NCBI GenBank assembly: GCA_963668175.1
Contig: OY764159.1
Coordinates: 2,144,001 to 2,208,000, forward strand
Length of the DNA stretch: 64,000 nt
Direction: 5' to 3'
DNA from: Syntrophales bacterium
Lineage (GTDB): Bacteria; Desulfobacterota; Syntrophia; Syntrophales; PHBD01
Shown: in pieces, positions 2 to 28,844 of the stretch
Layout of the letters: each line of letters begins with the position of its first letter
How positions within the stretch are numbered: the stretch's first letter is position 1
Notes under the pieces: generated by a model
What the model saw: the letters and a program-made list of their open reading frames with translations, nothing else
The model's database searches: none
What the model was told of the DNA's origin: nothing
Position numbers and translations under genes: made by a program

Positions 2-892
2 GTTCGACATATCAAACAGGGCTATCTGAGCCAGTTTGATCGAAATGCGCCACAACCGACTCCGTTTGATGTTAAGTTCACCGATTCCGGCAAAACAGCC
101 ATCGTGACGGAAAACGGCAAGACATCCGTGTATAAGGCAGTTACGGGAAAGTCAAATACGACCTGGAAATATGTTCCGGTGGAGGGGGGCGGCATCGATG
201 CGGCGGTAGATGCCGGGATCTATACGGTCCAACGCGGCAATGTCCTTGGCGATATCGCAGCCAAATTTCATACCACCGTTCAACAAATCATGGAGGCGAA
301 TCCCGATATCAAGAATCCGGATTCGATCCGCCCCGGACAGCGAATCGTATTGCCGAAAAACGACCCCTCCGGCCCCGCCGACAACAAGAAGGACCCCGAT
401 CCCGACCGGCAGGGCGCGACAGACCGGGGAGGCGACAACGACCGGCAATCCCGGAACATCTCCCATGATGACGGATTTACAGTGATCGCCTCAAGCGGCG
501 GCCCGGATGTTAACGAAAACACAAGTGCTGCCGCTCCTGCCGCTGACGCGCCGGCCGGCTTTTCCGCCGATCCGTTGCGTCATGCGCTGGACGCGCTGGG
601 GGTGAAGCCCCGCGATGTGCAATTCACCCCGGCGGCGGACTACGGGAATATAAAACCGGACTCCTTCGATATGGTGGATAAGGGCACATCCGAAAAGATA
701 GGCTCTTGTTTGATGACTCCCGACGGCGGCGAGATGACCGCGGGCGACAGGAAGGTCGTGATGGACCGGATAAGCGGCAACGACATTCACCTGCAAACGT
801 ACGCCAAAAACGACGACGGAGAATATGAACTCGTTGGGACGACGCGAATCGGCGACAACGACGGGGTAACGGTGACAAGGCCGTTTGCATAA
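2..892 (+). CDS. LysM-containing protein with conserved C-terminal domain (putative effector 1); 5' end lies outside the window
   Basis: Frame is open from base 2 into ORF 104..892. LysM motif YTVQRGNVLGDIAAKFHTTVQQIMEANPDIKNPDSIRPGQRIVLP. C-terminal ~105 aa (572-892) is near-identical to those of 2594..3700 and 7897..9093. Confidence 0.85.
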   Translation, partial: VRHIKQGYLSQFDRNAPQPTPFDVKFTDSGKTAIVTENGKTSVYKAVTGKSNTTWKYVPVEGGGIDAAVDAGIYTVQRGNVLGDIAAKFHTTVQQIMEANPDIKNPDSIRPGQRIVLPKNDPSGPADNKKDPDPDRQGATDRGGDNDRQSRNISHDDGFTVIASSGGPDVNENTSAAAPAADAPAGFSADPLRHALDALGVKPRDVQFTPAADYGNIKPDSFDMVDKGTSEKIGSCLMTPDGGEMTAGDRKVVMDRISGNDIHLQTYAKNDDGEYELVGTTRIGDNDGVTVTRPFA

Positions 893-986
893 TATCGGCG
901 GGCCGACCAGCGCCGCGACGCGGCTGGGGGCGAAGCGGTCGCAACGGAAAGCAATGCCTGGGAAAGCGTCCCTGACAAGGGGACGG

Positions 987-1060
987 GTCCCCCGAATGGG
1001 GGAAGGTCCCCCGCATGGGGGAAAGTCCCCCGCATGGGGGAAAGTCCCCCGCATGGGGGA
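987..1060. repeat. Tandem array of four 19-bp palindromic units, GTCCCCCGCATGGGGGAAA
   Basis: Units start at 987, 1006, 1025 and 1044. Each forms a TCCCCC-N4-GGGGGA hairpin. Confidence 0.9.
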
Positions 1061-1113
1061 CGGTATCCTCAGAATTTCGTCAAAATTCCGACAACGGAGG
1101 TTAAAAGGTCAAT

Positions 1114-1815
1114 ATGGCGTCACATGATAACGATCCGGGAAGAAAGTACGGACGATCGAGGGAAGAAAGGGGCTGTGGATGCCGGGATGGCGGCGGCTCT
1201 CGTTCCGGCGGATGGCCTCGGTCGCAATTCGGGAAGACGATGCTGCGGGGCATGATCCTGGTCATCCTCCTCCTTTTCACACCGCAGGTCCTCATCGCCG
1301 GCGACATTGAGGATGGGTATGACGAAAACACGATCCGCCCGTCGGACATACCGGCCGACGCCCCCCGGTTTGAAGATTATCCGGCAAAGCTTTACACCGG
1401 GCGCAATGCGGCCCCGGACCTCAAAAGCCACCCGCAGTCGAGGCTGTATCGGACGCGGCTTAAAGAATGGTCGCGCGAGAAACCGAATTTCGCGGGGCAC
1501 TTCATCCTGGCCGCTTGGGGCTGTGGAACCGATTGCACACAGATAGCCATCATCGACGCGAAAACGGGGCGTATTTTTCATCCGCCCGGTGCAACTTACA
1601 ATGTCGCCGTTAACGTGCACGATGATCTGCTGCCAACTTGTGAGCATATTAGAGACAGCTGCGGATCCATTTTGCATCGTCCGGACAGCAGGCTTTTGGT
1701 TATGATCGGTCGGCCTGAAGATAGCGAAAGAGGAATCTGGTATTTTTTATGGGAAAAGAATCGCCTGGTTAAACTGCGTTTCATACCGAAACCCTACAAC
1801 TGGCATGATGATTAG
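1114..1815 (+). CDS. Secreted/periplasmic hypothetical protein (putative immunity protein, paralog A); alternative start at 1240
   Basis: Signal-peptide-like MLRGMILVILLLFTPQVLIA from 1240. PNFAGHFILAAWGCGTDC motif. Close paralog of 1856..2554. Confidence 0.8.
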   Translation: MASHDNDPGRKYGRSREERGCGCRDGGGSRSGGWPRSQFGKTMLRGMILVILLLFTPQVLIAGDIEDGYDENTIRPSDIPADAPRFEDYPAKLYTGRNAAPDLKSHPQSRLYRTRLKEWSREKPNFAGHFILAAWGCGTDCTQIAIIDAKTGRIFHPPGATYNVAVNVHDDLLPTCEHIRDSCGSILHRPDSRLLVMIGRPEDSERGIWYFLWEKNRLVKLRFIPKPYNWHDD

Positions 1816-1855
1816 GGCAAATTCACCAAGCACACGCTGATCATGGAGGAATGTT

Positions 1856-2554
1856 ATGGTATCGCATTATAAGAATCCGGGAATCAAGTGCGGACGATCA
1901 AGGAAAGAAAGGGGCTGTGAGTGCCCGGGTGGCGGCTCTCGTTCCGGCGGATGGCCTCGGTCGCAATTCGGGAAGACGATGCTGCGGATCACGATCCTGG
2001 TCATGCTCCTCCTTTTCACGCCGCAGGTCCTCATGGCCGACGACATTGCGGATGGGTATGACGAAAACACGATCCGCCCGTCGGACATACCGGCCGACGC
2101 CCCGCGGTTTGAAGATTATCCGGCAAAGCTTTATACCGGGCGCAATGCGGTGCCCGATCTCAAAAGCCACCCGAGGTCGAGGATGTATCGGACGCGGCTC
2201 AAAGAATGGTCGCGCGAGAAACCGAATTTCGCCGGGCGCTTCATCTTGGCCACTTGGGGCTGTGGAACCGATTGCACACAGATAGCCATCATCGACGCGA
2301 AAACGGGGCGCATTTTTCATCCGCCCGGTGCAACTTCCAATAGTGCCGTTAATGTGCACGATGCTCTGTTTCAACCCGGCAAGAGTATCTGGTACGGCTC
2401 CGGCGCTATCTGGTATCGGCTGGACAGCAGGCTTTTGGTTTTGATCGGCGGGCCTGAAGATAGCGAAAGAGGAATCTGGTATTTTTTATGGGAGAAGGAT
2501 CGCCTGGTTAAGTTGCGTTTCATACCGAAACCCTTCCACTGGAAAAATCCTTAA
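1856..2554 (+). CDS. Secreted/periplasmic hypothetical protein (putative immunity protein, paralog B); alternative start at 1979
   Basis: GGAGG RBS before 1856. Signal-peptide-like MLRITILVMLLLFTPQVLMA. Directly upstream of transglycosylase gene 2594..3700. Confidence 0.8.
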   Translation: MVSHYKNPGIKCGRSRKERGCECPGGGSRSGGWPRSQFGKTMLRITILVMLLLFTPQVLMADDIADGYDENTIRPSDIPADAPRFEDYPAKLYTGRNAVPDLKSHPRSRMYRTRLKEWSREKPNFAGRFILATWGCGTDCTQIAIIDAKTGRIFHPPGATSNSAVNVHDALFQPGKSIWYGSGAIWYRLDSRLLVLIGGPEDSERGIWYFLWEKDRLVKLRFIPKPFHWKNP

Positions 2555-2593
2555 CCCAAATTAACTGGACAATGTTAATCATGGAGGAATGTT

Positions 2594-3700
2594 ATGGCTT
2601 CGCATTACAATGATCCGGGAATCAAATACGGACACTCAAGGGAAAAAGGGGCTGTCGACGCCGATGTCGCGGAGAAAGTCAAACAGAAAATCGTCACCCA
2701 GGCCAGAGCCGCGCAGCGTCAGGGCGTCCCCATCACGCAAGACGATATCGCCAGGTTAGTGGCCTATGCTGATCTGGAATCAGGGTTCAATCCCGACGCG
2801 GCCAATAAGGACGAATCCCCATCCGGTGTGTTTCAAATTGCGGATGAGACCGCTAAAGACTTCTATAGTCGATTAAACGGTAAATCTTTGATCAACGGTT
2901 ACCAAGTTAAGGGCAATTACGAAGACTACAAGCGATTCGATCCCGATTCGAACATCGCCGTAGGTATCGGTGTCTACCTCGACAAGAAAAGGAAGGCGAA
3001 GTCCGACGATGTCAATAAAATATATAAACGTTGGAATCCAGGAGCCACACCGGCGGAGCAAAAGGCGCTACGGAAACTGTATGAAAAATACAAAAGCATG
3101 AAACTTTCCCTCGATGATTCCGGGAGCGACGCCGACAAAGTCGCCGAGGCGGCGGAGCGGGATTCCGGGCGGACAGCCCCGGCCGGGCAACCGGACGATA
3201 CGTATTCAACCGAAGACAGGAAGAGAAAAGACCTCGCTGCGGGAGACGACGCCGAAGCTGAGACGGCGCGAAGAGGCGACGATTCGGGCGAACGAGAGGC
3301 CGACGATTCCACGAACAATCAGGACGGCGCTTTCAAGGCTGCCGCGAACGGTTCCTCCCTCGGCATACCCGAAGCGCCATGGCGGCACGCGCTGGATGTG
3401 CTGGGCGTGAAGTTCGGCGATGTGCAATTAACCCCGGCGGAGGCGGACGAAGAGAACGAGACACCGGACTCTTTCGACATCAGAGATAACGACACAACGG
3501 AAAAAATCGGCTCTTATGCGGGAACACCCACCGGCTGCGAAATGACCGTGGGCGACAGGAAGGTCGTGATGGACCGGATAAGCGGCAACGACATTCATCT
3601 GCAAACATATGCGAAAAACGACGATGGAGATTTTGAACTCGTTGGGACGACAAGAATCGGCGACAACGACGGGGTCACGGTAAGAAGGACGTTTGTATAA
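2594..3700 (+). CDS. Lytic transglycosylase (SLT-like) domain + acidic linker + conserved C-terminal domain (putative effector 2)
   Basis: GGAGG RBS. LESGFNPDAAN (catalytic Glu), SGVFQI and FDPDSNIAVG motifs. No signal peptide. Shared C-terminal domain at 3377-3700. Confidence 0.85.
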   Translation: MASHYNDPGIKYGHSREKGAVDADVAEKVKQKIVTQARAAQRQGVPITQDDIARLVAYADLESGFNPDAANKDESPSGVFQIADETAKDFYSRLNGKSLINGYQVKGNYEDYKRFDPDSNIAVGIGVYLDKKRKAKSDDVNKIYKRWNPGATPAEQKALRKLYEKYKSMKLSLDDSGSDADKVAEAAERDSGRTAPAGQPDDTYSTEDRKRKDLAAGDDAEAETARRGDDSGEREADDSTNNQDGAFKAAANGSSLGIPEAPWRHALDVLGVKFGDVQLTPAEADEENETPDSFDIRDNDTTEKIGSYAGTPTGCEMTVGDRKVVMDRISGNDIHLQTYAKNDDGDFELVGTTRIGDNDGVTVRRTFV

Positions 3701-3797
3701 TATCGGCTGGCCGGTAACCGCCGCGAAGCAGGCAGGCGAAAAAGGGGGACCCGTGAAATCCGAAGGCCCGGACGGGTAGGGCGGGAAGGGAGGGCAG

Positions 3798-4007
3798 TTG
3801 GGCAAAACGCTGATAGGGAAGGATGAGATCAAGGCCTACACCCGCCGCTCGTGGCAGACGATCCAGGCCTGGATCGACACGGAGAACTTCCCGGCGCGGA
3901 AGATCGGGGGCATCTGGGAATCGAACAAGGACCTCGTGGACGAATGGCGCCGCAACAACATCCTCAAACGGCCGCTGGTGGGGAATTATCCAGATATCAT
4001 CAGTTGA
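3798..4007 (+). CDS. Small helix-turn-helix DNA-binding protein (AlpA/excisionase-like)
   Basis: LIGKDEIKAYTRRSWQTIQAWI...FPARKIGGIWES pattern typical of mobile-element HTH proteins. GGAGG precedes a TTG start. Confidence 0.65.
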   Translation: MGKTLIGKDEIKAYTRRSWQTIQAWIDTENFPARKIGGIWESNKDLVDEWRRNNILKRPLVGNYPDIIS

Positions 4008-4608
4008 TAACGCGTAAGCTGCTTTATTTGTCTAGTGTTGCGGGTAATCGGAAGCCTTTGAAAGCTCTTTGACCTTCCATAAGAAGTACAATTCATCTTG
4101 ACTGATCGTCTCTTTCTTGTCGCTCTTCGCCATGGTTTCTTCAATGACTTCCGCACCTATTTTAGTCGCTCCAAATGCAGCAGCGCCTGCCAGCGGCGTT
4201 GTAAAGATTCCAGTTAGAAAACCAACAGATATAGCACCCGTCCATCCTGCAATTTTGCGCACAACTCCCTTAAAAAGGGATTTATCAGCTTTGCTAATTT
4301 TAGCGCTCAGAGATGCTAAGCGTGGTTGAAGAATGTCCGCATAAACTGCTTGAGCATCTCTCTCTGTAAATGAGTCACCCGCTATCTTGTATTCTTCTAT
4401 CGCTTTGGTCAATGCTGCTCTGAACAAAATGAATGCTTCTTGTTCGCTATTTCGAAGTTTTATAAGGCTTTGTGCGTCAACAGATTCAACGAAAGGAAGA
4501 AGGCAGGTAAGATATTTTTGCATAAGCATTGTATGCCGCCTAGCTATCGGATCACCCGTTAAGTTCTTTATGAAATTAATTTCGAGATCACTATCAGTGG
4601 AGTTGCCC

Positions 4609-5457
4609 CTATTTCACCGGACACTGTTCTAACTTATTTTGATGTCTCCTATACTCCCTGGGCGACATCATTTTCAATCCCTTGTGCGGATGGTTTTCAT
4701 TGTAGTCTACGAACCATCCGGGCAGTTGCTTCATGACCGTTTCGGCATCAGTCAGGATATTCAGATGAACATAATCCCTCTTGAAGGTCTTGACAAAGGA
4801 TTCGGCCATGCCGTTCGATTCCGGGCTGTAGAACGGGGTCGTGCAAACCTCAAGCCCCATCATCTGCCCAAAGCTTTTCGTTTCCCTGGCGGTGTACGCA
4901 GGACCATTATCGCTCAGCCACTGGATTCTGTGAGGCAGCCGATTGATCATACCGAAACGGGCCTCAATGGCTTCCGCCATCAAGTCCCTGACCATGTCGC
5001 CGGATACGCCCCCTGTCGTGGCTACATAACTCATGATTTCCCTGTCGCAACAATCCATGCTGAACGCTACCCGGAGACGGTCCCCATTCCAGCAGGCAAT
5101 CTCAAACGCATCGGAACACCAACGAAGATCGCTCCGTCTCGTCGTGACCTTACCCTCGTGAAGCCTTGCCGGCCTACCCGTATGCCGCTGAAGAAGCAGA
5201 TTGTGCATCTTCATGAGACGATAAATCCGTTTGGGGTTAACTCCCGGATGCCCCTGACGTTCCAGAAACCTGTTGATTCTTGCCGTTACTCTCCGATAGC
5301 CGTAACTGGGACGATTATCAATAACCTGCCTGATCAGAAGAAGATATCTGCCATCGTCGCCTCTCCTGTAATGGCGGCTTCTCGAATCGGCTTCCTTCCC
5401 TTGCCTTTCGTACTGCCGGGAACGGGAAACGTCCAGCGTATCGACAACCGTCTTCAT
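4609..5457 (-). CDS. IS3-family transposase OrfB (DDE/rve core), probably fused to OrfA by -1 frameshift
   Basis: YGYRRV, WCSD, WLSDNG and SPESNGMAESFVKTFKRDY motifs. The -1 frame is open from the A8 run to the ATG. Confidence 0.93.
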   Translation of the reverse strand: MKTVVDTLDVSRSRQYERQGKEADSRSRHYRRGDDGRYLLLIRQVIDNRPSYGYRRVTARINRFLERQGHPGVNPKRIYRLMKMHNLLLQRHTGRPARLHEGKVTTRRSDLRWCSDAFEIACWNGDRLRVAFSMDCCDREIMSYVATTGGVSGDMVRDLMAEAIEARFGMINRLPHRIQWLSDNGPAYTARETKSFGQMMGLEVCTTPFYSPESNGMAESFVKTFKRDYVHLNILTDAETVMKQLPGWFVDYNENHPHKGLKMMSPREYRRHQNKLEQCPVK

Positions 5458-5831
5458 CGGGAATCGTCCTCCGGCAACAACGGCAACCGCGAGATCAGTT
5501 TTTTTTCACGGGCAATCCGGACAGCCTCTCTTAATATCTCCACCTCCATTGTCTTTTTGCCCAGAAGACGCTCCAACTCCCGGATCTGCTTCTTCAGTTC
5601 TCTGGCTTCCGATGCAGGAACGACGCCTTCATCTGCACCAACCGCCGACAGAGCCCCTTCTTCGGCAAGCCTGCGCCAGTGGAACAGTTGGTTCGGATGG
5701 ATGTCATACTTCCGGGCTACAGCCGAGATGCTCATTCCCGGCTGCTCCGCCTCCCGCACCGTCGACTTCTTCTCGGCAGCCGACCAGCGACGTCGCCTCT
5801 GTACACCGACGATCACTTCTACAGGAACCAT
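5454..5831 (-). CDS. IS3-family transposase OrfA (HTH)
   Basis: RRRWSAAEKKSTV...SISAVARKYDIHPNQLFHWRR, then leucine-zipper-like ELKKQIRELERLLGKKTMEVEIL. Confidence 0.92.
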   Translation of the reverse strand: MVPVEVIVGVQRRRRWSAAEKKSTVREAEQPGMSISAVARKYDIHPNQLFHWRRLAEEGALSAVGADEGVVPASEARELKKQIRELERLLGKKTMEVEILREAVRIAREKKLISRLPLLPEDDSR

Positions 5832-7186
5832 AAACACCTTCTTTCTGGTTGTAGTAATATCTCTATATCTATTCCTACAACTTATTTCCAGATTCAAAGT
5901 GTCCGGTTCAATTGGGGGCTACTTCAATCAGACAAGAATGATGTCTTCAGCAAATCAGCAACACCTAATTCAAAGGCGATATTGTGAATGAGCGGTGTGA
6001 AGGGTATGTTATGCGCCTTAAGCTTTTTAGCTTGATCTGTGGTTAGCTTAATTATTCCACATTTTTTGACCTGCTCTACAAGCCTTGGAGCTTTACTATA
6101 GATTTCGTCCTGGATAAGATAAGTATGACACCACAAACCATGAGGTAATATTGAATCTGGCCCAGAACTGATTAGTGTCATTTCGTCATTCTTATAAATG
6201 AGTGAGTATGCTACTTCCTTCAAAAACCTTCTACGTAACGCATCTGACAACACGTTATATCTTGGGTTCTTATCCTGCGATAGAGCATCTATACATAGAC
6301 AATGCGGACAAACATTGCCAAAAGAAACCATCTGGACTATGTCAGATTCAATTAAAGGCAGTAATTCACAAAATACAATCAAATCATCCAAGAATTTATA
6401 GCGGAAAAAGGCCTCTAAATTCGCTGGTTTTCTATCAGCATACGCAAGTAAGTCTGTAAAATAATTCTTGATGAAAACCTTATCACTGTATAAAGCGGCA
6501 AACTGTGTCAACTCTCTAATCTTTTCAATTCGGCATGAAGGACTGGAACATGGATATGAACTTCCACCCAAAGATGGCGCTGCGGCGTGAGAGAATATCG
6601 ACGGACTGGCATTTATATTGGTATAATGTGTTATATCGGTGGATTGTTGGCAAACATCAATAATATGGCTTGCCTTCAGTTTGCGAATATACTTTATGAT
6701 TGGTTTGCCATTTCTTATCAACCCGGCATTTTCAAACAAAGCCTTAAGAGGGTGTTCCATATTCTTTTATACCTATAAATTATTATCGTGACAGCCTCGT
6801 ATATGCCCTTTATTTACCAGCTGTTAACGGAACTATGAGGCAGTTTATTGTGTGTGTCAAGAAAAAATGGACGAAATTGCTAGAACTATCATTAGATATT
6901 TCGTCGCTTTAACATATTGAGTCCACGATAATTCCGGTACGCCTACATATTTTCCCCCTTTTCCCTCGGTCAGACACCGGCGGACTTGACGCTGGCGGCT
7001 ATCCGTCAAGCGCAATAAAAGGTCATTCTTCCGCTATACGCCCGAATCGGTAAATAATCATTATATAATACTATATTTATATTGCATTAGGCCGTTTATC
7101 GTTTATAATATCAGTATAATATCCTGACATGGCCGGATGGCGAGGGGGAGTTCGTAACCGTTTGATATTTTTATGCGAGGTGCATC

Positions 7187-7891
7187 ATGAATGAAAAGAG
7201 CCGTGAAGTAAAAAGAAGCGCCGCGACGATGAGCCGGAAGGACGATCGACCGGGCATCCGGTGCGCGACGATTCGATCCGCCTGCCTTCTTTTTATGGCC
7301 CTGTTCGTTTTGGCCTGGAGTCCGGGAGCATTCGCAGCGGAACCCGGCAGCCCCGCATTGTCCCAAGATAAGGAAGGTCAAGCCGCCGGGGAGAACGCAG
7401 GCGGGGAATTCAAAAAATATCGTGCCGTATTCAGCGAGCTGGTTTGCGGAGATGTCAAGGCATTGGCGGTAAGAATACGATCAGAGGAAGACAGCTTTCC
7501 TTTGATTGAAGCTGTTGACCAGAGAATATACTTTATCAACAAGACCGGCCGGATCAAGCTTGTCAAGGATTCATGGGATAACAAGTTGAATCGAAACAGG
7601 ATTAATTCTTCGGGATATATTTATCCCGCAGTATCCTGGGATTGTACGAGAGATAAGAGAGGAAAACCTTACATCATTATTTTCTCATGGTCCGGCGGTA
7701 ATTATCGGGGAGCCGAATGGACCGAAATCTATGATCTGGATGGCAGATTGGTGGCGAGCAACTATTCAGAAAAGATAAAGAATTTTCGACGCATCAATGA
7801 TTTGTTTGACAAGAAAATAGAAAAATTAGGAATTCGTTACGATTGGAGATCTGCAAAAAAAATCAGATTTAAAGAACAAGACGGGAGGTAA
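7187..7891 (+). CDS. Secreted hypothetical protein (putative immunity protein for 7897..9093)
   Basis: Hydrophobic signal CLLFMALFVLAWSPGAFA. Stop lies 5 nt before the next ATG, with that gene's GGAGG RBS at its 3' end. Confidence 0.78.
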   Translation: MNEKSREVKRSAATMSRKDDRPGIRCATIRSACLLFMALFVLAWSPGAFAAEPGSPALSQDKEGQAAGENAGGEFKKYRAVFSELVCGDVKALAVRIRSEEDSFPLIEAVDQRIYFINKTGRIKLVKDSWDNKLNRNRINSSGYIYPAVSWDCTRDKRGKPYIIIFSWSGGNYRGAEWTEIYDLDGRLVASNYSEKIKNFRRINDLFDKKIEKLGIRYDWRSAKKIRFKEQDGR

Positions 7892-7896
7892 GCTGG

Positions 7897-9093
7897 ATGC
7901 CGAAAGAAACAAATTACAATATCTTAATCGATAAAACGCCTGGCCGTTCTGCCGGGAACAGTCGAAAAGCAGGGGCTGCTCCATACGAAGTGAAGGTGAA
8001 AGCCGTGGAAGCGATCAGGAAGTATGCAGGTCTTTATGGATTCAATGAACATCAGACCAGCGAAGTCTTGAAAATCGTGGAACACGAATCTGGATTTAAT
8101 CCAGATGCTGCGAATCCAGACACAACTGCGTCCGGACTAGGACAGATGATGAATGACACGTTTGAGCAGTATGGGCCGCGTGGTGCGAATATTTTCGATC
8201 TGGATGCCAACGCAGAGGCAACAGTCAGATACTATCAACATTGCCTGAACAAAGCCGCAGAGAAAGGACTGACCGGAGAGAAGTTGGATACAGGTGCGTA
8301 TGCGTGTTATCATGACGGCCCGTGGAATTTTAAAGCCGGTAAGGATAAAAAAGGTGCGGATATTTATAAAAAGGTCATTAAAAAATTATCCGGTAAGCCC
8401 AAGGTTAGCAGTAACGAACGCTCCTCCAGCAACTCCGACAAGGTAGCCGAGGCGACGGAACGGGATTCCGAGCGGACAGCCGCGGCTGAGCAGCCGGACG
8501 ATGCTTATTCAACCGAAGACAGGAAGAGAAAAGACCTCGCGGGAGACGACGCCGAATCTGAAACGGCGTGGAGAGGCGGAAATTCAGATCGTCGAAGCAT
8601 ACCTAATTCATGGATAGCGGATGCCGGTAACGTGCTTTCAGATGTGTCCGGAAATGCTCTTCAAAGCGCCCTCCGCGAGGCAAGAAAGCCAACGGATGTC
8701 GAATCGGCCGCGAACACGATGACGCTTCGTGAGGCGCCGACCGATTTGCTTGCCGAACCGGGTTCTCCATTGCAGCACGTAATGGATGCGCTGGGGGTGT
8801 CGTCCGGCGATGTGCATTTAACCCCTGCGGAAGCGGACGATGAGAACGAGACACCGGACTCCTTCGATATTGTGGATAAGGGCACATCCGAAAAGATAGG
8901 CTCTTGTTTGACGACACCCGGCGGCTGCGAGATGACCGCAGGCGACCGGAAGGTCGTGATGGACCGGATAAGCGGTAATGACATTCACCTGCAAACGTAT
9001 GCCAAAAACGACGATGGAGATTTTGAGCTCGTTGGCACAACGCGAATCGGCGACAACGACGGGGTAACGGCAAGAAGGCCGTTTGCGGGTTAG
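7897..9093 (+). CDS. Lytic transglycosylase (SLT-like) domain + linker + conserved C-terminal domain (putative effector 3)
   Basis: HESGFNPDAAN, SGLGQM and AYACYHDGP SLT motifs. No signal peptide. Linker shared with 2594..3700. Shared C-terminal domain at 8767-9093. Confidence 0.87.
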   Translation: MPKETNYNILIDKTPGRSAGNSRKAGAAPYEVKVKAVEAIRKYAGLYGFNEHQTSEVLKIVEHESGFNPDAANPDTTASGLGQMMNDTFEQYGPRGANIFDLDANAEATVRYYQHCLNKAAEKGLTGEKLDTGAYACYHDGPWNFKAGKDKKGADIYKKVIKKLSGKPKVSSNERSSSNSDKVAEATERDSERTAAAEQPDDAYSTEDRKRKDLAGDDAESETAWRGGNSDRRSIPNSWIADAGNVLSDVSGNALQSALREARKPTDVESAANTMTLREAPTDLLAEPGSPLQHVMDALGVSSGDVHLTPAEADDENETPDSFDIVDKGTSEKIGSCLTTPGGCEMTAGDRKVVMDRISGNDIHLQTYAKNDDGDFELVGTTRIGDNDGVTARRPFAG

Positions 9094-9167: not shown

Positions 9168-9536
9168 ATGCGAGATGAATTTTCTTTCTCTGAAGTCGAA
9201 CGGATTGTTCCGGCTATTAAAAGAAGCACCGCCCAGATGTGGGTCAAGGCTGGGATTATTGTGCCGAAAGAGAATCATGTGGGCCGAGGGGTGTCGCGGG
9301 TTTACTCTTTCGAAAATCTCATTGAGCTTTTTGCAGCTGCGGAATTATCCGGATGTTGGGGGATGGCCACGAAGGGCATAGAATCGCATCTGAAGCGTCC
9401 AAGGTTTAAGAGTGCCGTCAAAGAGAGAGGCGTCTATTGCCGTGTTCGCTATGGTAACGATGCAGACAGCGGCATTACATCGGCTGTGATAATATTCATT
9501 GGAGAAATTGCGGCGGAGATAGAAAGGCGGCTGTAA
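9168..9536 (+). CDS. MerR-type HTH DNA-binding protein
   Basis: FSFSEVERI...RSTAQMWVKAGIIVP...GRGVSRVYSFENL is a MerR-HTH pattern. Confidence 0.7.
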   Translation: MRDEFSFSEVERIVPAIKRSTAQMWVKAGIIVPKENHVGRGVSRVYSFENLIELFAAAELSGCWGMATKGIESHLKRPRFKSAVKERGVYCRVRYGNDADSGITSAVIIFIGEIAAEIERRL

Positions 9537-10325: not shown

Positions 10326-11237
10326 TTATTTATGAAATAATTCAAATCTCCGCAAATGAAGATTGAGACTTCTCGCAAATCCATCGAGACCTGGAAACAA
10401 GGTCGACGGATTGACATTCATTTCATGAAGGTCATATAACGCTTCTTTATGAATATCTCTTGATATGACTATTTTCAATATCGCAACATCTCGGAAATCA
10501 AACTCTTCTAATCGGGCCGTCTCAATTTGCGTCGCATCGGCGCTTGATAATTCATCAAAAGTTATCTCAAATGCAGCGCATAGATTCTTTTCGAAGGACG
10601 ACTGTCTATTGCATGGGAATAAAAAAATACCCTGTTGCATCCAGAGACGAGTATGTTGGAGGAAAGGGTCGATTAACAAGACAGAGTTTTCACTCTCTTC
10701 TTTTGAATTCAGGCATTCGTTTGCCCTGTCTTTGTGCGCTTTGACTATTTCTCTGTATGGATGAGAGTATGGCGACATGCCGCCAATTTCTACCGAATCT
10801 ATAAGCATGTTTATGTTAATGGCCCAAACGGCCGAATCGTCCGTTGAATTTTCCATAGCAAAGAACGCTGCTATAAAGAAGGAATCCGTAAAATCCAAGA
10901 GCCTCGTACTCCCGCCGTAGTGCTGCAAGAAAGATAGCCATTCGATGCTGTTATTTAATTCCGGAAGTTTATGCTCGAAGAGATGAGCTCGACGTTGAAA
11001 TTCGCTAAGCATATACAATTCTGTATTTTGATAGTGGTATTTAGTGCATTGGTATTGCTCGGCGTCTCTCTCGAATCTCGTTGATAAAGGCCACTCTTTA
11101 TCTCCCTGGCCACGAAATGCCCAAATAGGAGCCCCGGCTTTCATGCACGAGAGAAGCTTTCCTCGGTCATTCCAGGAGTCAATTGCTATTTCACAAAATT
11201 TATGTGAATCCGTCTTCAAATGATTTCCCTTAGCCAA
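10326..11237 (-). CDS. FRG domain-containing protein
   Basis: WAFRGQ, LQHYGGSTRLLDFT and RLWMQQGIF motifs, ending in STLFPGLDGFAR. AT-rich. Confidence 0.9.
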   Translation of the reverse strand: MAKGNHLKTDSHKFCEIAIDSWNDRGKLLSCMKAGAPIWAFRGQGDKEWPLSTRFERDAEQYQCTKYHYQNTELYMLSEFQRRAHLFEHKLPELNNSIEWLSFLQHYGGSTRLLDFTDSFFIAAFFAMENSTDDSAVWAININMLIDSVEIGGMSPYSHPYREIVKAHKDRANECLNSKEESENSVLLIDPFLQHTRLWMQQGIFLFPCNRQSSFEKNLCAAFEITFDELSSADATQIETARLEEFDFRDVAILKIVISRDIHKEALYDLHEMNVNPSTLFPGLDGFARSLNLHLRRFELFHK

Positions 11238-22880: not shown

Positions 22881-23789
22881 TCAGGGGACGACGCGGTCCA
22901 TGTGCTTGCGCACCTTCTCCATGTCCGCCCGGTACTTGCAGATGACGTTCAGCGTCTCCGAAACGACCTCAGGCGTCAGCTCCGCGATTTGCAGGGCCAG
23001 GAGCGACTGCGCCCAGTCCAGCGTTTCCGAGATGCTGGGGCTCTTCTTGAGATCGAGGCCGCGGATTTTGCGGATGGCGGAAACCAGCGCGGCGCAAAGC
23101 TTTGCCTCGATGCCGGGGATCTTCAGGCGGACGATGGCGATCTCCGTATCCTCGGCGGGGTAGTCGATGTAGAGGTGGACGCAGCGGCGCTTGAGGGCGT
23201 CGCTCATGTCTCGGTAGTTGTTGGACGTAAGGAGCACGAAGGGGATCTTCACGGCCTTGCGGGTGCCCAGCTCCGGGATGGACACCTGGAAGTCGCTTAA
23301 AAGCTCAAGAAGGAAGGCCTCGAACTCCGGGTCGGACTTGTCGACTTCGTCCAGAAGCAGCACCACCGGCTCCTTCGAGCTGATCGCCTGCAGGAGCGGG
23401 CGCGGCTGGATGAAGCGGTCGGAGAAGAAGGCGTCCTCCTGGGCGCCGATCTGGTCCACCGCCTCCGTCAGGGTCGCCGTGGGGGCGATGATGTCGTTGA
23501 TGCGGTCTTTCACCATCTGCGTGTAGAGGAGCTGCTTCGCGTACTCCCATTCGTAGAGGGCCTTGGCCTCGTCCAGCCCCTCGTAGCACTGGAGGCGGAT
23601 CAGCTCGCGGCCGAGGCTCCGGGCGACGGCCTTGGCCAGTTCCGTCTTGCCGACGCCCGCCGGCCCTTCGATCAGGACGGGCTTCTGCGTCGCCTGCGCC
23701 AGGAAGACGACCGTCGCGATCTCCCGCGACGGAATATAGCCCGCCTCCGCGAGCCTCTTCTCCACATCGTCGACACTCCGGTAATCCAT
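22881..23789 (-). CDS. MoxR-family AAA+ ATPase (CoxD-like)
   Basis: Walker A GPAGVGKT, IRLQCYEG, Walker B LLLDEVDK, and LTSN...SDALKRRC. Confidence 0.93.
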   Translation of the reverse strand: MDYRSVDDVEKRLAEAGYIPSREIATVVFLAQATQKPVLIEGPAGVGKTELAKAVARSLGRELIRLQCYEGLDEAKALYEWEYAKQLLYTQMVKDRINDIIAPTATLTEAVDQIGAQEDAFFSDRFIQPRPLLQAISSKEPVVLLLDEVDKSDPEFEAFLLELLSDFQVSIPELGTRKAVKIPFVLLTSNNYRDMSDALKRRCVHLYIDYPAEDTEIAIVRLKIPGIEAKLCAALVSAIRKIRGLDLKKSPSISETLDWAQSLLALQIAELTPEVVSETLNVICKYRADMEKVRKHMDRVVP

Positions 23790-24156
23790 GAATAACGTCG
23801 TCCTTTCCTTGCGATACATATCCGGCGGCACGTGCCCGGGTACAGGGCGCAAGACCGCGCCGTCGCCTGCCGCCTGAGGATACCACCGGGGCCGCCGGAT
23901 GCCCAGCAAAATCTATCTCTTGGAAAAACGGGGGGTTAACGGGGCGGACAGATGCCAATCCGGAGAAAGTGCGGGCCTCGGAGGGATATCAAAAAAACGG
24001 ACGGAAAGCGGGCGGAAACGGAAAGACGAGACCGGTTGGCGAATCATGGGCGTCGGGATAATTCCGGGGACACCACACTTAATTATTATAATAAAATAAA
24101 GTGAACCGTCGCCGTTGCCGCCCGGCCGGAAACACCCTTCCCCGGAACCCTTTCCC

Positions 24157-24837
24157 CTAACGCACGGGCTGGTTTTCAGGGCGTATCCATTGGGGGAGGA
24201 TGGATTTCTCGATCCTGACCTTCTGCAATGCGGGGTATTCGGAAAGGTACAGCTTCATATCCTCCTCGAATCTATCTTCGGCAACAACATCGTAAGTCCC
24301 CGTGGAAGCGCCGACCACCGCCTGATCGATCAGCGGTACGACTTTTCCCGCTCTTTCTTCGCTGTCGCTTTTCCTTTCCCGCAGCACGACGTCAAGATGT
24401 CCCAGGTAGATCACGGCGTTCGGTTTGATCTCCAGTTTATAATTCAGCGGAACGGAGCCGCCGCCGGTAATCGGGAAATGATCGTATGCCGCGCCGATGC
24501 TGTGAAAGGTGTACGCGCCTCCCGCAAGCTCAAAACTCAGCAGGTATTCGTTGAAGCTGTTCTCCACGCTTTTTATCCGGTAAGGAATGTCGGCCCTGTA
24601 GAAGCTGCTCCTCGACCCGTGGTCGCATCGCTCCGATTGCGGGCAGATAAGCGCGCCCATGATATCCAGCTGGTAGCCCGGCTTGTGCTGGTTCGCAATC
24701 TTGACCGAAAGCAGGGCCAGCGATTTTTTGGAGACGTCAATGTCCGTCTGGCCCTTGGTGAGCGCCATGTTGCCGCCCGCGCAACCCGCCATGACGAAGA
24801 CGGAACACAAGACGATAAGAAACCTTCGACTGATCAT
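24157..24837 (-). CDS. Hypothetical lipoprotein (repeat-flanked cassette)
   Basis: GGAGG RBS. MISRRFLIVLCSVFVMAGC lipobox. Confidence 0.82.
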   Translation of the reverse strand: MISRRFLIVLCSVFVMAGCAGGNMALTKGQTDIDVSKKSLALLSVKIANQHKPGYQLDIMGALICPQSERCDHGSRSSFYRADIPYRIKSVENSFNEYLLSFELAGGAYTFHSIGAAYDHFPITGGGSVPLNYKLEIKPNAVIYLGHLDVVLRERKSDSEERAGKVVPLIDQAVVGASTGTYDVVAEDRFEEDMKLYLSEYPALQKVRIEKSILPQWIRPENQPVR

Positions 24838-25007
24838 AACCCCTCCCGGCCAACGCCTCATCCATGATATCGGGGAATTCGTGAATTCGGGGGGCACCAC
24901 ACTCATTTAACAAAATTCCCCTGCCTGGCGGTTAATAATTAAGTATGACGTCCCCGGAATTACGACTGCCTGGCGGTTTATAATTAAGTATGGTGTCCCT
25001 GAATTGA

Positions 25008-25491
25008 CGATCTGGTCCACCGCCTCCGTCAGGGTCGCGGTGGGGGCGATGATGTCGTTGATGCGGTCCTTCACCATCTGCGTGTAGAGGAGCTGCTTGG
25101 CGTACTCCCATTCGTAGAGGGCCTTGGCCTCGTCCAGCCCCTCGTAGCACTGGAGGCGGATCAGCTCGCGGCCGAGGCTCCGGGCGACGGCCTTGGCCAG
25201 CTCCGTCTTGCCGACGCCCGCCGGCCCCTCGATCAGGACGGGCTTCTGCGTCGCCTGCGCCAGGAAGACGACCGTCGCAATCTCCCGCGAGGGGATGTAG
25301 CCCGCCTCCGTCAGCCTCTTCTCCACATCGTCGACACTCCGGTAATCCATGAATAACGTCGTCCTTTCCCTGCGATACATATCCGGCGGCACAAGCCCGG
25401 TTACAGGGCGCACAACCGCGCCGCCGCCTGCCGCCTGAGGATACCACCGGGGCCGCCGGATGCCCAGCAAAATATATCATTGGGAAAAACG
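25008..25491 (-). pseudogene. Partial duplicate of the moxR 5' end and upstream region (copy of 23447-23930), bounded by repeats
   Basis: Colinear 484-bp copy without indels. The reading frame runs into the repeat after ...EAVDQI. Confidence 0.93.
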
Positions 25492-25603
25492 TCTGAATTT
25501 GGGGGACACCACGCTCATTTATCAGAATTCCCCTGCATGGCGGTTTATAATTAAGTATGGTGTCCCCCGAATTACGTTTGCGCCTGATTGCTGTGCGGCG
25601 ATA

Positions 25604-26134
25604 TTAGTAACGGCGCCGACGTATATTAACGCAGAGCCAGCAATTATTTTGATGTTGTACCAACTCAATCTTGAAATGGGGACTTCTTCGGATGCCGAAT
25701 CTATAAGGATAGAATTTGAATTCACGTGCCATTTGGGGAAAACGAAGTTTTAGACCGTCGACATACCGAGTGACACTTGGCTTATCAAGCCACGGACCAG
25801 TTTGTGGGTGTGGATCTTTGTATACGATGACTTGCCCTTTGGAGTCTCTGTAAATCGCAGTGGCACTATCTGGAAGAGATGCTGGAAATACGTCGTAAGG
25901 GCCACAAATTCTGTGGTGGGTAGTTGATGCCCTGAAATATGGTGCATCCTCAAAGAATACCTTTGTGCCATCTTCATAAGCAGTGAAACCTTCGCCTGAT
26001 TTTGTAAGCAATGGAAGGTGCTTTTCTGTCAGTCCAAAAAGTTGTTCTTTATCGCATTCCTCCCAAAACCATGTGCGCCAGTAATCATGACCATTCCTAC
26101 TGACAACGGAGGCTTCATATGACCAAGGCATCAT
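25604..26134 (-). CDS. Hypothetical protein (AT-rich, repeat-flanked cassette)
   Basis: AAGGAG RBS. The ORF fills the interval between two repeats. Confidence 0.7.
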   Translation of the reverse strand: MMPWSYEASVVSRNGHDYWRTWFWEECDKEQLFGLTEKHLPLLTKSGEGFTAYEDGTKVFFEDAPYFRASTTHHRICGPYDVFPASLPDSATAIYRDSKGQVIVYKDPHPQTGPWLDKPSVTRYVDGLKLRFPQMAREFKFYPYRFGIRRSPHFKIELVQHQNNCWLCVNIRRRRY

Positions 26135-26305
26135 CAATCTCCTTTTCTGGAAAGTTCAAGCACTTTCCAATTAATATTACAAACAAATGGTGCAAATGAC
26201 GGAATTCGGGAATTCGGGGAACATCCATATTCATTTGTCTGAATTCCCCTGCCTGGCGGTTAATAATTAAGTATGACGTCCCCGGAATTGTGCTGTGGTT
26301 GGGAT

Positions 26306-26857
26306 TTAATAAAATCTTTTGTTCATAGCTTTCTTATAAACGTTCTCTAGATCAAACGTTACAGGATCTCTCTCCCCATCATCTGTTGAATTATCAATTA
26401 AATTGAACGCTATACCACCATTTTCAATTTCACCCAAAAAGCACAATTCTTTTTTTGAGGCTCTTCTGGCTAAGGCAAACTCTCCATGATCGCCTAAATA
26501 ATTATCCTTAAAGTCATCATCCCATTCGGGAACTGCTAGAACATAGACTTTATATTTGTTTTGCTGTGGGGATCCTATTATTAAAAGATATTTTTTATTA
26601 GTTTGCCGACTAAATACTTCTATTTTTTTATCATCATGCCATTCATATCCGTCAGGTTTTATTTCTATCCAACAACTGTAATCAGGGAGATAAAAATCAG
26701 GTAAGTACCATGTACCATCAATATCAAATCCTTCAACTTCATATTGATATTCTATTTCGAGTTCATCAAAGAACACCGCCCAGCGCGCTTCTAATCTACT
26801 ACGAAATTTGATGCCGTTATAATTTGTTTCAATAGTTTTTATCATTTTCCATCCCAA
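26306..26857 (-). CDS. Putative PD-(D/E)XK nuclease-like protein (repeat-flanked cassette)
   Basis: FRSRLEARWAVFFD...YLPDFYLP...WIEIKP motif. AT-rich. Confidence 0.8.
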   Translation of the reverse strand: MGWKMIKTIETNYNGIKFRSRLEARWAVFFDELEIEYQYEVEGFDIDGTWYLPDFYLPDYSCWIEIKPDGYEWHDDKKIEVFSRQTNKKYLLIIGSPQQNKYKVYVLAVPEWDDDFKDNYLGDHGEFALARRASKKELCFLGEIENGGIAFNLIDNSTDDGERDPVTFDLENVYKKAMNKRFY

Positions 26858-26932
26858 CGATTAATATACCAACTTGGTTTATGCGATTTCCGGAGGCAAT
26901 ATTACGTCCCTGAATTGTTCGGAATTGGCAAG

Positions 26933-27469
26933 TCATTTTTTAATAATGCATCTTTGTAGATGCTCTTGAACTTCTCTCGGAAATTCATTGGCAGCTATTG
27001 AATCATCAAATAGCCACTTAAAATAAATAACCACTATATATCGTAGATCCCACATTGAAAAAATTGAATTATCAATTTCAATGTAAATTTCTGGTTTATT
27101 ATCGAAATATGATCTCCAGTCGCCCACTATAGGCGGGTAGGTTTTCTTCACCGGTGTTTTCTCATAATTTTTTTTTCGTAGAATCATATGCTTACTACCA
27201 TTGGTTAAATCTTTAAAAGCTTTTAACAACACCTGCATTTCAGATGTAGTACGTCCTTTTTTTTGACGAGCTAATCTGGGGCGATTCTGATCTTCGTCAA
27301 TCCAGTCATCATATAAGTGCCATGCAGTCACGAAAAAATTAAAACAATCATAAGGATTGCATTCCTCGCTCAATTTTTTATCTTCATAGAGCAGCTTCAT
27401 CAACATATCGTAACTACTACTTATTCCATAATCAAAATGTGGCGTATTATTTTCTATCAAGTCATTCAT
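26933..27469 (-). CDS. Hypothetical protein, possibly HEPN-like (repeat-flanked cassette)
   Basis: FNFFVTAWHLYDDW and KDLTNGSKH, which resembles the HEPN Rx4-6H pattern. AT-rich. Confidence 0.72.
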   Translation of the reverse strand: MNDLIENNTPHFDYGISSSYDMLMKLLYEDKKLSEECNPYDCFNFFVTAWHLYDDWIDEDQNRPRLARQKKGRTTSEMQVLLKAFKDLTNGSKHMILRKKNYEKTPVKKTYPPIVGDWRSYFDNKPEIYIEIDNSIFSMWDLRYIVVIYFKWLFDDSIAANEFPREVQEHLQRCIIKK

Positions 27470-27636
27470 ATGATTTATAAATTCTATGCCATACAGAATT
27501 CGGGGGACACATACTCATTTATCTGAATTCTCCTGAATGGCGGTTAATCATTAAGTATGGACGTCCCCTGAATTGGCGCACTTTTCAGAATAAACACATC
27601 AGCAATATCATAAACGCAAGGGCTTAAATTCCGCGT

Positions 27637-27909
27637 TTACTTCACGAAGTCTCTTAGTGCCTTACCGGCTTTGAACGTAGGAACTTTCTTGGCCGCAATT
27701 TTAATTGTTTTTCCAGTCTGTGGATTTCTTCCTTCTCTGGCCTTTCGCTTTGCAACAGAGTATGTGCCGAAACCAACAATCGTCACGGCGCTATCTCTTT
27801 TCATTGCGCCTTGAATGGCCTGATGATAACAATCAATGCAGCGGCTGGCCTGGGCTTTCGTAACTCCGGCACAACCAGCCACAAATGAAACGACATCTGC
27901 TTTATTCAT
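27637..27909 (-). CDS. hup: HU-family histone-like DNA-binding protein
   Basis: MNKADVV...VGFGTYSVAKRKAREGRNPQTGKTIKIAAKKVPTFKAGKALRD. Confidence 0.92.
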   Translation of the reverse strand: MNKADVVSFVAGCAGVTKAQASRCIDCYHQAIQGAMKRDSAVTIVGFGTYSVAKRKAREGRNPQTGKTIKIAAKKVPTFKAGKALRDFVK

Positions 27910-28516
27910 TTTTGCCCCTCCCCTTTTCGCTCTGCAACTGGAATTTGAGAGCCGCGATTTCTCTATCCCGCCGATCAATCTCCGCTTTCGATTGTTCAAT
28001 TTGTGATTTCAGCAAATACACTTCTCTTTTCAAATCGTTATTGGAAGGCTTAATATAATTCACATAGGCCCACGCGGACGAAGCGACGACCGCAACAACG
28101 GATACAGTGAACGTAGCCAGCTTCCACGGTTTGGCTTTCTTCGCCTCCAATATGTCAAGCCTTTCTTTCGTTGACAGCACGCCTGTGAGCTCCCAATGAT
28201 GCCTGCATTTCACCGGCATGTTTTCGGGATCTTTTAAATAGCCTCCCAGGCAAGTCCGCTTCACAGCCTTACGTATCAGAGACGTATCGCACTCTTCGCC
28301 GTTGTCGAATTTGGCAATTTCATCTTCTATAATCTTCTGGTCCTCGCGATCCAGAGTTTCTATAGAGTGGTCTTCGACGTACAAGTAGCAATTGTTCAAG
28401 CAATTTGGCAAGAATGGCCTCCTGGTACCTTCAGGAAACTGGTTCAACGCGAACGCGAGAGATAGGAAATGCAGTGAGATGTGAAAAACTTTGAACCGAT
28501 TTATGAGGCTTGTCAA
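27902..28516 (-). CDS. Hypothetical protein with one TM helix and a C-terminal coiled coil (start uncertain)
   Basis: TM LATFTVSVVAVVASSAWAYV. Stop overlaps the HU start. Confidence 0.65.
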   Translation of the reverse strand: MTSLINRFKVFHISLHFLSLAFALNQFPEGTRRPFLPNCLNNCYLYVEDHSIETLDREDQKIIEDEIAKFDNGEECDTSLIRKAVKRTCLGGYLKDPENMPVKCRHHWELTGVLSTKERLDILEAKKAKPWKLATFTVSVVAVVASSAWAYVNYIKPSNNDLKREVYLLKSQIEQSKAEIDRRDREIAALKFQLQSEKGRGKNE

Positions 28517-28844
28517 GATGAAATATCAGTAAAATCAATAAAAAGATATGCAATCAGCCTCTAGTAATCTTGCGGGCGGGGATATGAGGGGAGGAAGAAG
28601 AAAAGAGGTTTTAAGAAACGGACATGGTGAAACATAGATCATTTATTCACGACTATTAATTGGCATCAACAAGATACTCGACGGAGGTGATTAATGACTA
28701 CAGGAAAAATCCTTGATTCGCGATGGGGTTTGCGGCTGCCGTCGGGAATGTCTTATTTCCGGCAAGGGACGCATGGTCCCGCCGGTCTTTCCCTCCCGCC
28801 GGCCGCCGGCCTGGCCCGGCGCGGTCGCCGTTCCCGGCTGCCGT

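Follow-up and report, generated by a model that had tools for sequence, protein, structure and literature searches.

A candidate family of reverse-polarity polymorphic toxins with a constant C-terminal domain in a Syntrophales bacterium

The subject of this study is a stretch of 64,000 nucleotides (nt) from the genome of a Syntrophales bacterium (GenBank assembly GCA_963668175.1, contig OY764159.1, positions 2,144,001 to 2,208,000 of the forward strand), hereafter the window and, in particular, the three genes within its first 9.1 kb whose products have different N-terminal parts (heads) and one and the same C-terminal domain of about 107 residues. Together with the genes for secreted proteins (partners) that lie beside them, these candidate effector genes probably represent, on balance, three cassettes from a family of polymorphic antibacterial toxins of reverse polarity that is small and undescribed, and in which the partners would have an immunity-like role and the constant domain would be read by an injector. 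This interpretation is based on the following observations: (i) many unrelated heads are joined to one tail; (ii) the effectors lack an export signal, whereas their neighbours carry one; (iii) the partner changes with the head; (iv) several paralogues are present in one genome; and (v) heads and tails show signs of shuffling.

Candidate effector genes and their common C-terminal domain

Three effector genes can be distinguished on the plus strand of the window: (i) the LysM-type open reading frame (ORF) at 2..892, which is open at the window edge and corresponds to the 3' 296 codons of the gene for a 456-aa protein, represented at full length by P0009; (ii) the SLT-1 gene at 2594..3700 (368 aa), with an SLT domain at residues 55-155, an acidic low-complexity linker and the C-terminal domain; and (iii) the SLT-2 gene at 7897..9093 (398 aa), with an SLT domain at residues 51-155, a linker that is partly common with that of SLT-1 (DNA repeats D4 and D5) and, again, the C-terminal domain. 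The LysM domain occupies residues 74-118 of the window ORF and scores 54.3 bits against a cut-off of 20.9 (Pfam PF01476; E 1.3e-14). For the SLT domains of SLT-1 and SLT-2 (Pfam PF01464), the scores are 30.8 and 37.2 bits (cut-off 21.3; E 2.4e-7 and 2.5e-9, respectively), and both heads, which are 36% identical to each other, keep the catalytic Glu-Ser motif (LESGFNPDA and HESGFNPDA). An earlier note written from the letters of this DNA alone (the original prediction) had described one LysM-containing and two divergent SLT heads, a description which is borne out by these results.

The common domain is located at 572..889 (copy 1, 106 aa), 3377..3697 (copy 2, 107 aa) and 8767..9090 (copy 3, 108 aa), all on the plus strand; the block is also a DNA repeat (D1). 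A hidden Markov model (HMM) was built from the domain. At the protein level, copies 2 and 3 are 76% and 81% identical to copy 1, with a mean column identity of 88%, and the sequence of the domain ends in ...GDNDGVTVRRPFA. Searched with this HMM, the six-frame translation of the window contains exactly three copies, whereas 80 unrelated loci contain none, so the prediction of three ORFs sharing one C-terminal domain stands. Identity between the copies at the DNA level is 31-41% in the 32 bases that precede the domain, 74-83% at residues 1-55 and 88-90% at residues 56-107 (77-83% at the third codon positions of this second half). The jump in identity at the start of the domain goes far beyond chance and, hence, points to a module with a sharp boundary.

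The AlphaFold (AF2) model of copy 2, built on a 24-row alignment, consists of one helix followed by seven strands (pLDDT 78.7, pTM 0.67). The domain has no match in Pfam (E≤0.1), NCBIfam (E≤0.05) or PHROGs, the best E value in a profile search against PDB sequences is 1.4, and a Foldseek search with the model returned nothing at E≤1e-3 in either PDB or BFVD; its best PDB rows, i.e. Tsi1 chains (E 0.05, TM 0.3) and a DUF3836 protein (TM about 0.5), were treated as noise. No usable match was obtained from ESM Atlas either. All this agrees with the original prediction, in which the domain was not recognised. Likewise, no description of such a domain was found in the literature by means of search terms, a weak result in that papers are not searchable by sequence.

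Putative secreted partners of the candidate effectors

Partner genes precede both SLT genes on the same strand. The partner A2 gene (1856..2554, likely start ATG 1979) ends 39 nt before the start of SLT-1, and the partner B gene (7187..7891) ends 5 nt before the start of SLT-2. Both code for putative secreted proteins: A2 belongs to a widespread uncharacterised family, and the signal peptide of B ends in ...SPGAFA, immediately before AEPG. These two genes had already been listed in the original prediction; a third one, that of partner A1 (1114..1815, plus strand), was overlooked at the time. The A1 protein, also putatively secreted, is 81% identical to A2, of which it is a paralogue. Comparison with homologues places its likely start at ATG 1240, which gives a protein of 191 aa whose signal peptide is MLRGMILVILLLFTPQVLIAG. 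Profile comparison reveals no relationship between partners A and B (hhalign probability 0.6%), as anticipated, and the partner family changes with the head: A beside SLT-1, B beside SLT-2. No Pfam match was obtained for the partner genes adjoining the effectors.

Signal-like N-termini were judged by a simple hydropathy scan (Kyte-Doolittle, 12-residue window). None of the 25 family proteins has one (best mean within the first 60 residues, at most 2.15), and the full-length LysM-type effector P0009 equally lacks a signal peptide; by contrast, all three partners (A1, A2 and B) have one, with hydropathy values of 2.64-2.90. The distinction that had been drawn between effectors without signal peptides and preceding genes with them therefore holds. 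The effectors are acidic, with isoelectric points of 4.2-6.3, and partners A2 and B are basic (9.3-9.7); partner A1 has values of 6.7-8.5.

The partner B family comprises eight proteins, with a conserved signal peptide and two conserved cysteines. Its best ESM Atlas scores are 0.88-0.91 and include a PliI lysozyme-inhibitor cluster at 0.88, which is below the counting level and lacks Pfam support.

The partner A family is larger, with 269 matches at E≤1e-3 and 107 confirmed genomic relatives, mostly in Betaproteobacteria and Acidobacteriota and in a few Geobacter, which are 50-65% identical across phyla. They typically have about 190 aa counted from the signal peptide on, and the NFAG and WGCGxxC motifs are invariant. 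No Pfam or NCBIfam model covers the family; the AlphaFold model (pLDDT 91.3) has no Foldseek match at E≤1e-3, and a PDB profile search gave none. The neighbourhoods of 80 of the 107 relatives were kept (loci L001-L080). In L052 (Geobacter hydrogenophilus), the partner A relative lies directly upstream of vgrG, which is followed by a gene for a LysM protein; in L074 (a Geobacter metagenome-assembled genome), it lies in a low-GC insert between tssM and tssA, together with two further signal-peptide ORFs. Other relatives are found among ankyrin (Ank), DUF2716 and SUKH-1 genes (L001) or adjoin SUKH-3 (L072). The LysM protein of L052 was considered as a family member and rejected, as it has only LysM and a generic SLT motif in common with the family; a LysM protein is listed among the putative type VI secretion system (T6SS) effectors of G. 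sulfurreducens in Table 1 of PMC10580878. In two Duganella loci, an SLT gene lies upstream of the partner A relative; no specific relationship links these SLT genes with SLT-1 (E 2.5).

The two partner A genes of the window form a tandem duplication with a unit of about 740 nt (1113-2674), within which repeat D2 is 94% identical over 300 nt. The first copy of repeat D3 (82 nt, 1113..1194, plus strand) starts one base before the start codon of the long ORF and spans its first 27 or so codons; further copies are present at 1855-1936 (82% identity) and 2593-2674 (62%, with a one-base deletion), so that both partner A genes and SLT-1 have one 5' end in common. The GGAGG that stands upstream of D3 is also conserved in the two later copies. 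Due to the one-base deletion, the downstream frame is changed in the SLT-1 copy. In the long partner A ORFs, an extension of 41-42 residues (MASH.N.PG.K.GRSRE...) precedes the signal peptide; homologues elsewhere have the signal peptide at their very start, equivalent here to ATG 1240 and ATG 1979, so these first 41-42 codons are confined to this lineage. The shared 5' repeat was also considered as an RNA element, an idea for which no support was obtained: the consensus fold has one compensatory pair in 20, with a positive covariation term. Nothing was found by Rfam in positions 1-12 kb of the window, and promoter and terminator scans gave fewer sites than in shuffled sequences. Between the LysM-type gene and that of partner A1, at 986-1064, a 19-nt unit, GGTCCCCCGCATGGGGGAA, is repeated in tandem 4.2 times, and every copy can form a GGGGG/CCCCC hairpin; the core motif of this unit occurs three times in the window, against 0.26 expected.

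Distribution of the family and possible shuffling of heads

The C-terminal domain was searched for in longer proteins by means of a word-indexed search, which yielded 17 proteins, and in 1.84 billion cluster representatives with HMMER, which yielded 16 matches with E≤1e-3; 14 clusters remain when E≤1e-10 is required. The two weakest representative matches, P0026 and P0027, are unrelated repeat proteins and were judged spurious by inspection. So few matches among so many representatives indicate that the family is very small. None was detected by tblastn in 50,697 phage records or in 72,556 plasmid records. Within one contig of 4,567,304 bp, there are at least six paralogues: P0002, P0008, P0009, P0014 and the two SLT genes of the window.

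Across the 25 family proteins, the domain is preceded by N-terminal parts of at least six unrelated architectures, mostly peptidoglycan-directed. BLAST clustering of the N-terminal parts of 24 of them resulted in six unlinked classes: (i) SLT heads of several subtypes (nine proteins); (ii) LysM-containing heads (seven proteins, of which two are linked to the others by nothing more than their LysM or linker region); (iii) heads of about 530 aa with a weak LysM (two proteins); (iv) heads with no recognisable domain (P0004, P0010 and P0019); (v) glycine-rich hydrophobic, i.e. membrane, segments, labelled by us as "glycine zipper" (P0011 and P0023); and (vi) an NlpC/P60 head (P0013), whose Cys and His motifs were read by eye. 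Pfam applied to P0001-P0017 detected SLT in two proteins, LysM in five plus two weak cases, NlpC/P60 in one and nothing in seven, and the heads of P0018-P0023 were read by eye only. Searches of PDB sequences with the unrecognised heads of P0004 and P0014 gave nothing, and with that of P0009 only LysM; a match of P0009 to Ntox44 was discarded as below threshold (17.3 versus 24 bits). There are also short forms, in which hardly anything is added to the domain (P0020 and P0022). The tabulation of N-terminal domains after an HMM search, proposed in the original prediction, has thus been carried out; a known cell-wall-binding or phage structural domain that is never fused to diverse toxins, the outcome set there as contrary, is not what emerged, given the variety of heads and the absence of any match of the domain.

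Fifteen changes of head class are required on the maximum-likelihood tree of the domain, compared with a possible minimum of 6 and a mean of 14.6 after shuffling; in other words, the classes are scattered as if at random. Moreover, well-supported clades mix head classes: P0013 with P0014 (99/97), P0016 with P0023 (96/97), and P0018, P0019, P0012 and P0020 together (95/98). Both facts suggest that heads and tag have recombined repeatedly. Alternatively, tags may have been homogenised within one genome, and the higher identity of the 3' half of the window copies would fit either process. Outside the window, an effector and a partner probably lie on the same contig in the pairs P0006/P0030, P0001/P0028 and P0012/P0156, to judge from their equal longest-contig values (3349, 53403 and 9216, respectively).

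Proposed mechanism

The following course of events can be proposed: (i) the partner and effector genes, arranged head to tail with the partner first, would be co-transcribed, as the gaps of 5 and 39 nt suggest; (ii) the partner would be exported by Sec to the periplasm, as indicated by its signal peptide; (iii) the effector has no signal peptide and, in consequence, would be kept in the cytoplasm, away from peptidoglycan, with a layout consisting of an envelope-attacking variable head, a disordered linker and the constant, predicted beta-rich domain; (iv) a delivery machine or adaptor encoded elsewhere would recognise the constant domain, this machine being, by analogy only, most likely a contact-dependent injector of the type IV secretion system (T4SS) or T6SS kind; (v) once delivered, the enzyme would cut the cell wall in the periplasm of the neighbour, and the periplasmic partner would protect sister cells; and (vi) recombination at the shared linkers and at the constant 3' domain would generate new combinations, a step backed by the sequence patterns described above. 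The immunity role of the partners is suggested only by their position and their signal peptides, and that of the constant domain as a recognition tag for an injector by comparison with described systems. As regards the delivery machine, a T6SS is as good a candidate as a T4SS, with a fitting repertoire of activities and with partner A relatives in Geobacter T6SS loci.

A more far-reaching version is conceivable, which we put forward only tentatively and regard as rather doubtful. In it, the 107-residue domain would be the undescribed recruitment signal of a new class of reverse-polarity toxins, which an antibacterial injector would read through a coupling protein or an adaptor, in an environmental lineage from which no system of this kind has been described, and, besides, partner A proteins would be widespread periplasmic inhibitors of lytic transglycosylases or lysozyme-like enzymes, with the WGCGxxC loop plugging the active site. 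A known protein that plugs the active site of an enzyme is Ivy.

Comparison with known systems

In the original prediction, the Xanthomonas T4SS effectors (X-Tfe) were described as carrying variable peptidoglycan-directed heads. Among described systems, the X-Tfe/X-Tfi pairs come closest to the present family. According to PMC8740702, X-Tfe proteins have their toxic domains first and then a C-terminal XVIPCD of about 120 residues that binds VirD4, and their genes are always paired with upstream X-Tfi immunity genes. Common to the X-Tfe proteins, as described in PMC8740702, and to the present family are (i) a toxic (here putatively toxic) domain N-terminal of a constant C-terminal domain of about 100-120 residues; (ii) many paralogues per genome, some of which are little more than the tag; and (iii) an upstream gene for a secreted partner, with gaps of 39 and 5 nt here, where the partner would, by analogy, inhibit the effector. 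The parallel that had been drawn with Xanthomonas was accurate as to gene order (PMC8740702). An XVIPCD is recognised through conserved motifs in its sequence and binds the all-alpha domain of VirD4, and X-Tfe translocation depends on the T4SS. The domain in question, however, has one helix and seven strands in the AF2 model, compared with an alpha-alpha-beta-beta-beta arrangement given there for XVIPCD, and lacks the Gln-rich tail (PMC8740702). No XVIPCD chain is among the Foldseek PDB matches listed for the domain model. Pfam holds an XVIPCD model, and Pfam and NCBIfam searches with the full proteins gave only LysM, SLT and related matches. Judging by sequence and predicted fold, the domain is not an XVIPCD. 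Two further differences concern the partners, which have plain signal peptides in which no lipobox was noticed by eye, and the delivery genes. The latter were looked for with Pfam in 64 ORFs (59 hand-picked from the 95 listed ORFs of at least 150 aa that lie within 14-64 kb, together with five from 4.6-14.7 kb) and in 52 minor ORFs in 1-12.5 kb; neither VirD4 nor VirB genes were seen among these scanned ORFs.

Pairs of T6SS effectors and immunity proteins that act in the periplasm (Tae/Tai, Tge/Tgi and membrane-disrupting pairs) resemble the present family in their activities, namely amidase or NlpC/P60, muramidase or SLT, and glycine-rich membrane segments. In both cases, the effectors have no signal peptide and the immunity or immunity-like proteins have one, to which can be added the two partner A relatives in Geobacter T6SS loci (L052 and L074). 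But while known T6SS marker domains are N-terminal, the constant part is here C-terminal, and the scanned ORFs include no vgrG, hcp or PAAR gene. In any case, orphan effector loci exist and, hence, the absence of such linkage does not exclude T6SS delivery.

Modular endolysins and bacteriolysins have the same domain order (catalytic part N-terminal, then a C-terminal module, which in those lysins binds the wall) and the same enzyme types, and the SLT heads resemble phage lysins. Nevertheless, no known binding domain is matched by the C-terminal domain of the present proteins, which does not occur in the phage records either, and the proteins themselves have no visible export route and lie beside secreted partners. 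With CdiA, Rhs and LXG toxins, the family shares a constant part (here with a putative role in trafficking), a variable toxin or candidate toxin, an adjacent immunity or immunity-like gene and diversification by recombination; by contrast, its putative toxin is N-terminal, its immunity-like gene is upstream instead of downstream, and Pfam detects no filamentous, YD or LXG regions. Substrates of the type IX secretion system differ in both signals, as none of the 25 proteins has a signal-like N-terminus and none of the NCBIfam models for the C-terminal domain of such substrates is matched.

Alternative explanations

That the proteins are bacteriocin-like lysins, released by lysis or by another exporter, with the constant domain as a receptor-binding or uptake module for crossing the target outer membrane and the partners as periplasmic immunity proteins, seems unlikely. 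Variable heads, a constant domain and secreted partners would be expected as much from such lysins as from injected toxins, and both the long disordered linkers between head and domain and the lack of injector genes nearby among the scanned ORFs would suit them. Bacteriolysins, too, usually have the catalytic part at the N-terminus and the targeting part at the C-terminus. However, no lysis or export gene appeared among the ORFs scanned, and the domain is unlike known receptor-binding domains according to Foldseek (PDB, BFVD). A more ordinary origin, as autolysins or prophage lysins whose shared domain is an unrecognised envelope or wall anchor and whose secreted neighbours are functionally unrelated, is quite improbable. 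With no signal peptide in the proteins, and no holin or spanin among the scanned ORFs, no route to the wall is visible; LysM already provides wall binding; the domain is missing from the phage records and BFVD folds mentioned above and is also carried by P0011 and P0023, which have glycine-rich membrane segments only and no enzyme; there are at least six paralogues per genome; and partner B and SLT-2 are 5 nt apart. What does speak for lysins is that SLT, NlpC/P60 and LysM heads are typical of them, that the SLT heads match PHROGs of phage tail lysins and tape-measure proteins and are followed by helix-turn-helix (HTH) genes (3798..4007 and 9168..9536), and that partner A is mostly found without toxins.

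The constant domain could also be a docking module that holds wall cutters on a pilus, flagellum or conjugation system of the producer itself, so that the proteins would be machine-associated housekeeping hydrolases. SLT enzymes do open the wall for T4SS and flagella, and the concerted similarity of copies within the same genome fits a single binding partner inside the cell. This is, nonetheless, very unlikely in view of the at least six paralogues with very different heads, including forms with nothing but membrane segments, and of the lack of apparatus genes nearby among the scanned ORFs; moreover, the paired secreted proteins are left unexplained. As for the C-terminal domain being itself the toxin, with variable heads that only breach the wall, it is true that the toxic part is C-terminal in most polymorphic toxins and that the short forms P0020 and P0022 exist. 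But the immunity protein of a constant toxin would have to be constant as well, whereas the partners found here come from unrelated families, and the domain is unlike any toxin family (Pfam, NCBIfam, Foldseek), which leaves this explanation with a minimal chance.

The interpretation of the cassettes as injected toxins with immunity-like partners has, for its part, several results against it. No T4SS gene (virD4, virB) and no T6SS, injection or tail gene was found among the scanned ORFs, and 76 pattern matches to the domain in 185,579 species-representative genomes led to no confirmed member of the family. The match of the SLT heads to PHROGs of phage tail proteins, with E values down to 9.6e-8, together with the HTH and excisionase-like genes after them, makes an origin from prophage remnants possible. 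According to Foldseek, neither the C-terminal domain nor partner A resembles a known immunity or adaptor fold. Most of the neighbourhoods of partner A are unrelated to conflict systems and usually have no adjoining toxin gene: a peptidoglycan-hydrolase domain is found in none of 74 candidate downstream ORFs in 55 loci, and in six loci, mostly of Acidobacteriota, the partner A relative lies directly upstream of meaB. A family so broad and conserved is no less in keeping with some general function in the periplasm than with dedicated immunity.

Significance

Each of the marker domains XVIPCD, MIX and LXG gave access to a catalogue of antibacterial toxins and led to the machine by which these are fired. 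The domain described here is unannotated, has no detectable relatives in sequence or fold, and joins at least six kinds of candidate envelope-attacking modules, two of them without an assigned function. If it is a delivery tag, it would provide (i) a means of finding the machine or adaptor that goes with it, in an environmental lineage that has been little studied; (ii) new families of toxins and immunity proteins; and (iii) a second independent case of a C-terminal tag with the immunity gene first, outside the T4SS of the Xanthomonas type. The very narrow distribution of the family limits the breadth of its impact.

Genomic surroundings

The cassettes are located in a patchy stretch of lower GC content, 0.42-0.57 versus about 0.6 for most of the rest of the window. 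Within this stretch, which also includes the HTH and FRG-domain genes described below, an IS3-family insertion sequence (IS) occupies 4606-5917, with orfA (5454..5897) and orfB (4609..5457) on the minus strand and inverted ends of 20 nt that are 85% complementary. It lies between two minus-strand ORFs without assigned function (5924..6760 and 4032..4529); the frame of the latter is open up to the end of the element and, therefore, a gene may have been split or shortened by the insertion. The HTH genes mentioned above begin within about 100 nt after the SLT genes, both on the plus strand: the one after SLT-1 (3798..4007) is of the excisionase-like HTH_17 type (PHROG 66, E 5.7e-6), and the one after SLT-2 (9168..9536) is weakly MerR-like. 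Possibly, they are what is left of mobile elements by which the cassettes were carried or, alternatively, local regulators. On the minus strand, an FRG-domain gene (10326..11237; Pfam E 5.8e-22) matches the candidate phage-defence family PDC-S15 of PADLOC (E 1e-41), which marks the neighbourhood as an island of defence and competition. The window has no transfer RNA gene.

In the other 50 kb, the genes are those of an ordinary chromosome, for example for catalase-peroxidase, sensor kinases and PEP-CTERM proteins. A second sharp patch of low GC content (25600-28520, minus strand; GC 0.38 over 26-28 kb) holds four unassigned minus-strand ORFs and, at 27637..27999, a gene whose product resembles, as read by eye, a DNA-binding protein of the HU/IHF type; this patch is probably another acquired islet. 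At 22881-25470 on the minus strand, an AAA gene (MoxR/CoxD-like) and a VWA gene (CoxE-like) are followed by a short second AAA fragment (24907..25470), which matches only the first 50 or so positions of the profile and, hence, suggests a partial duplication.

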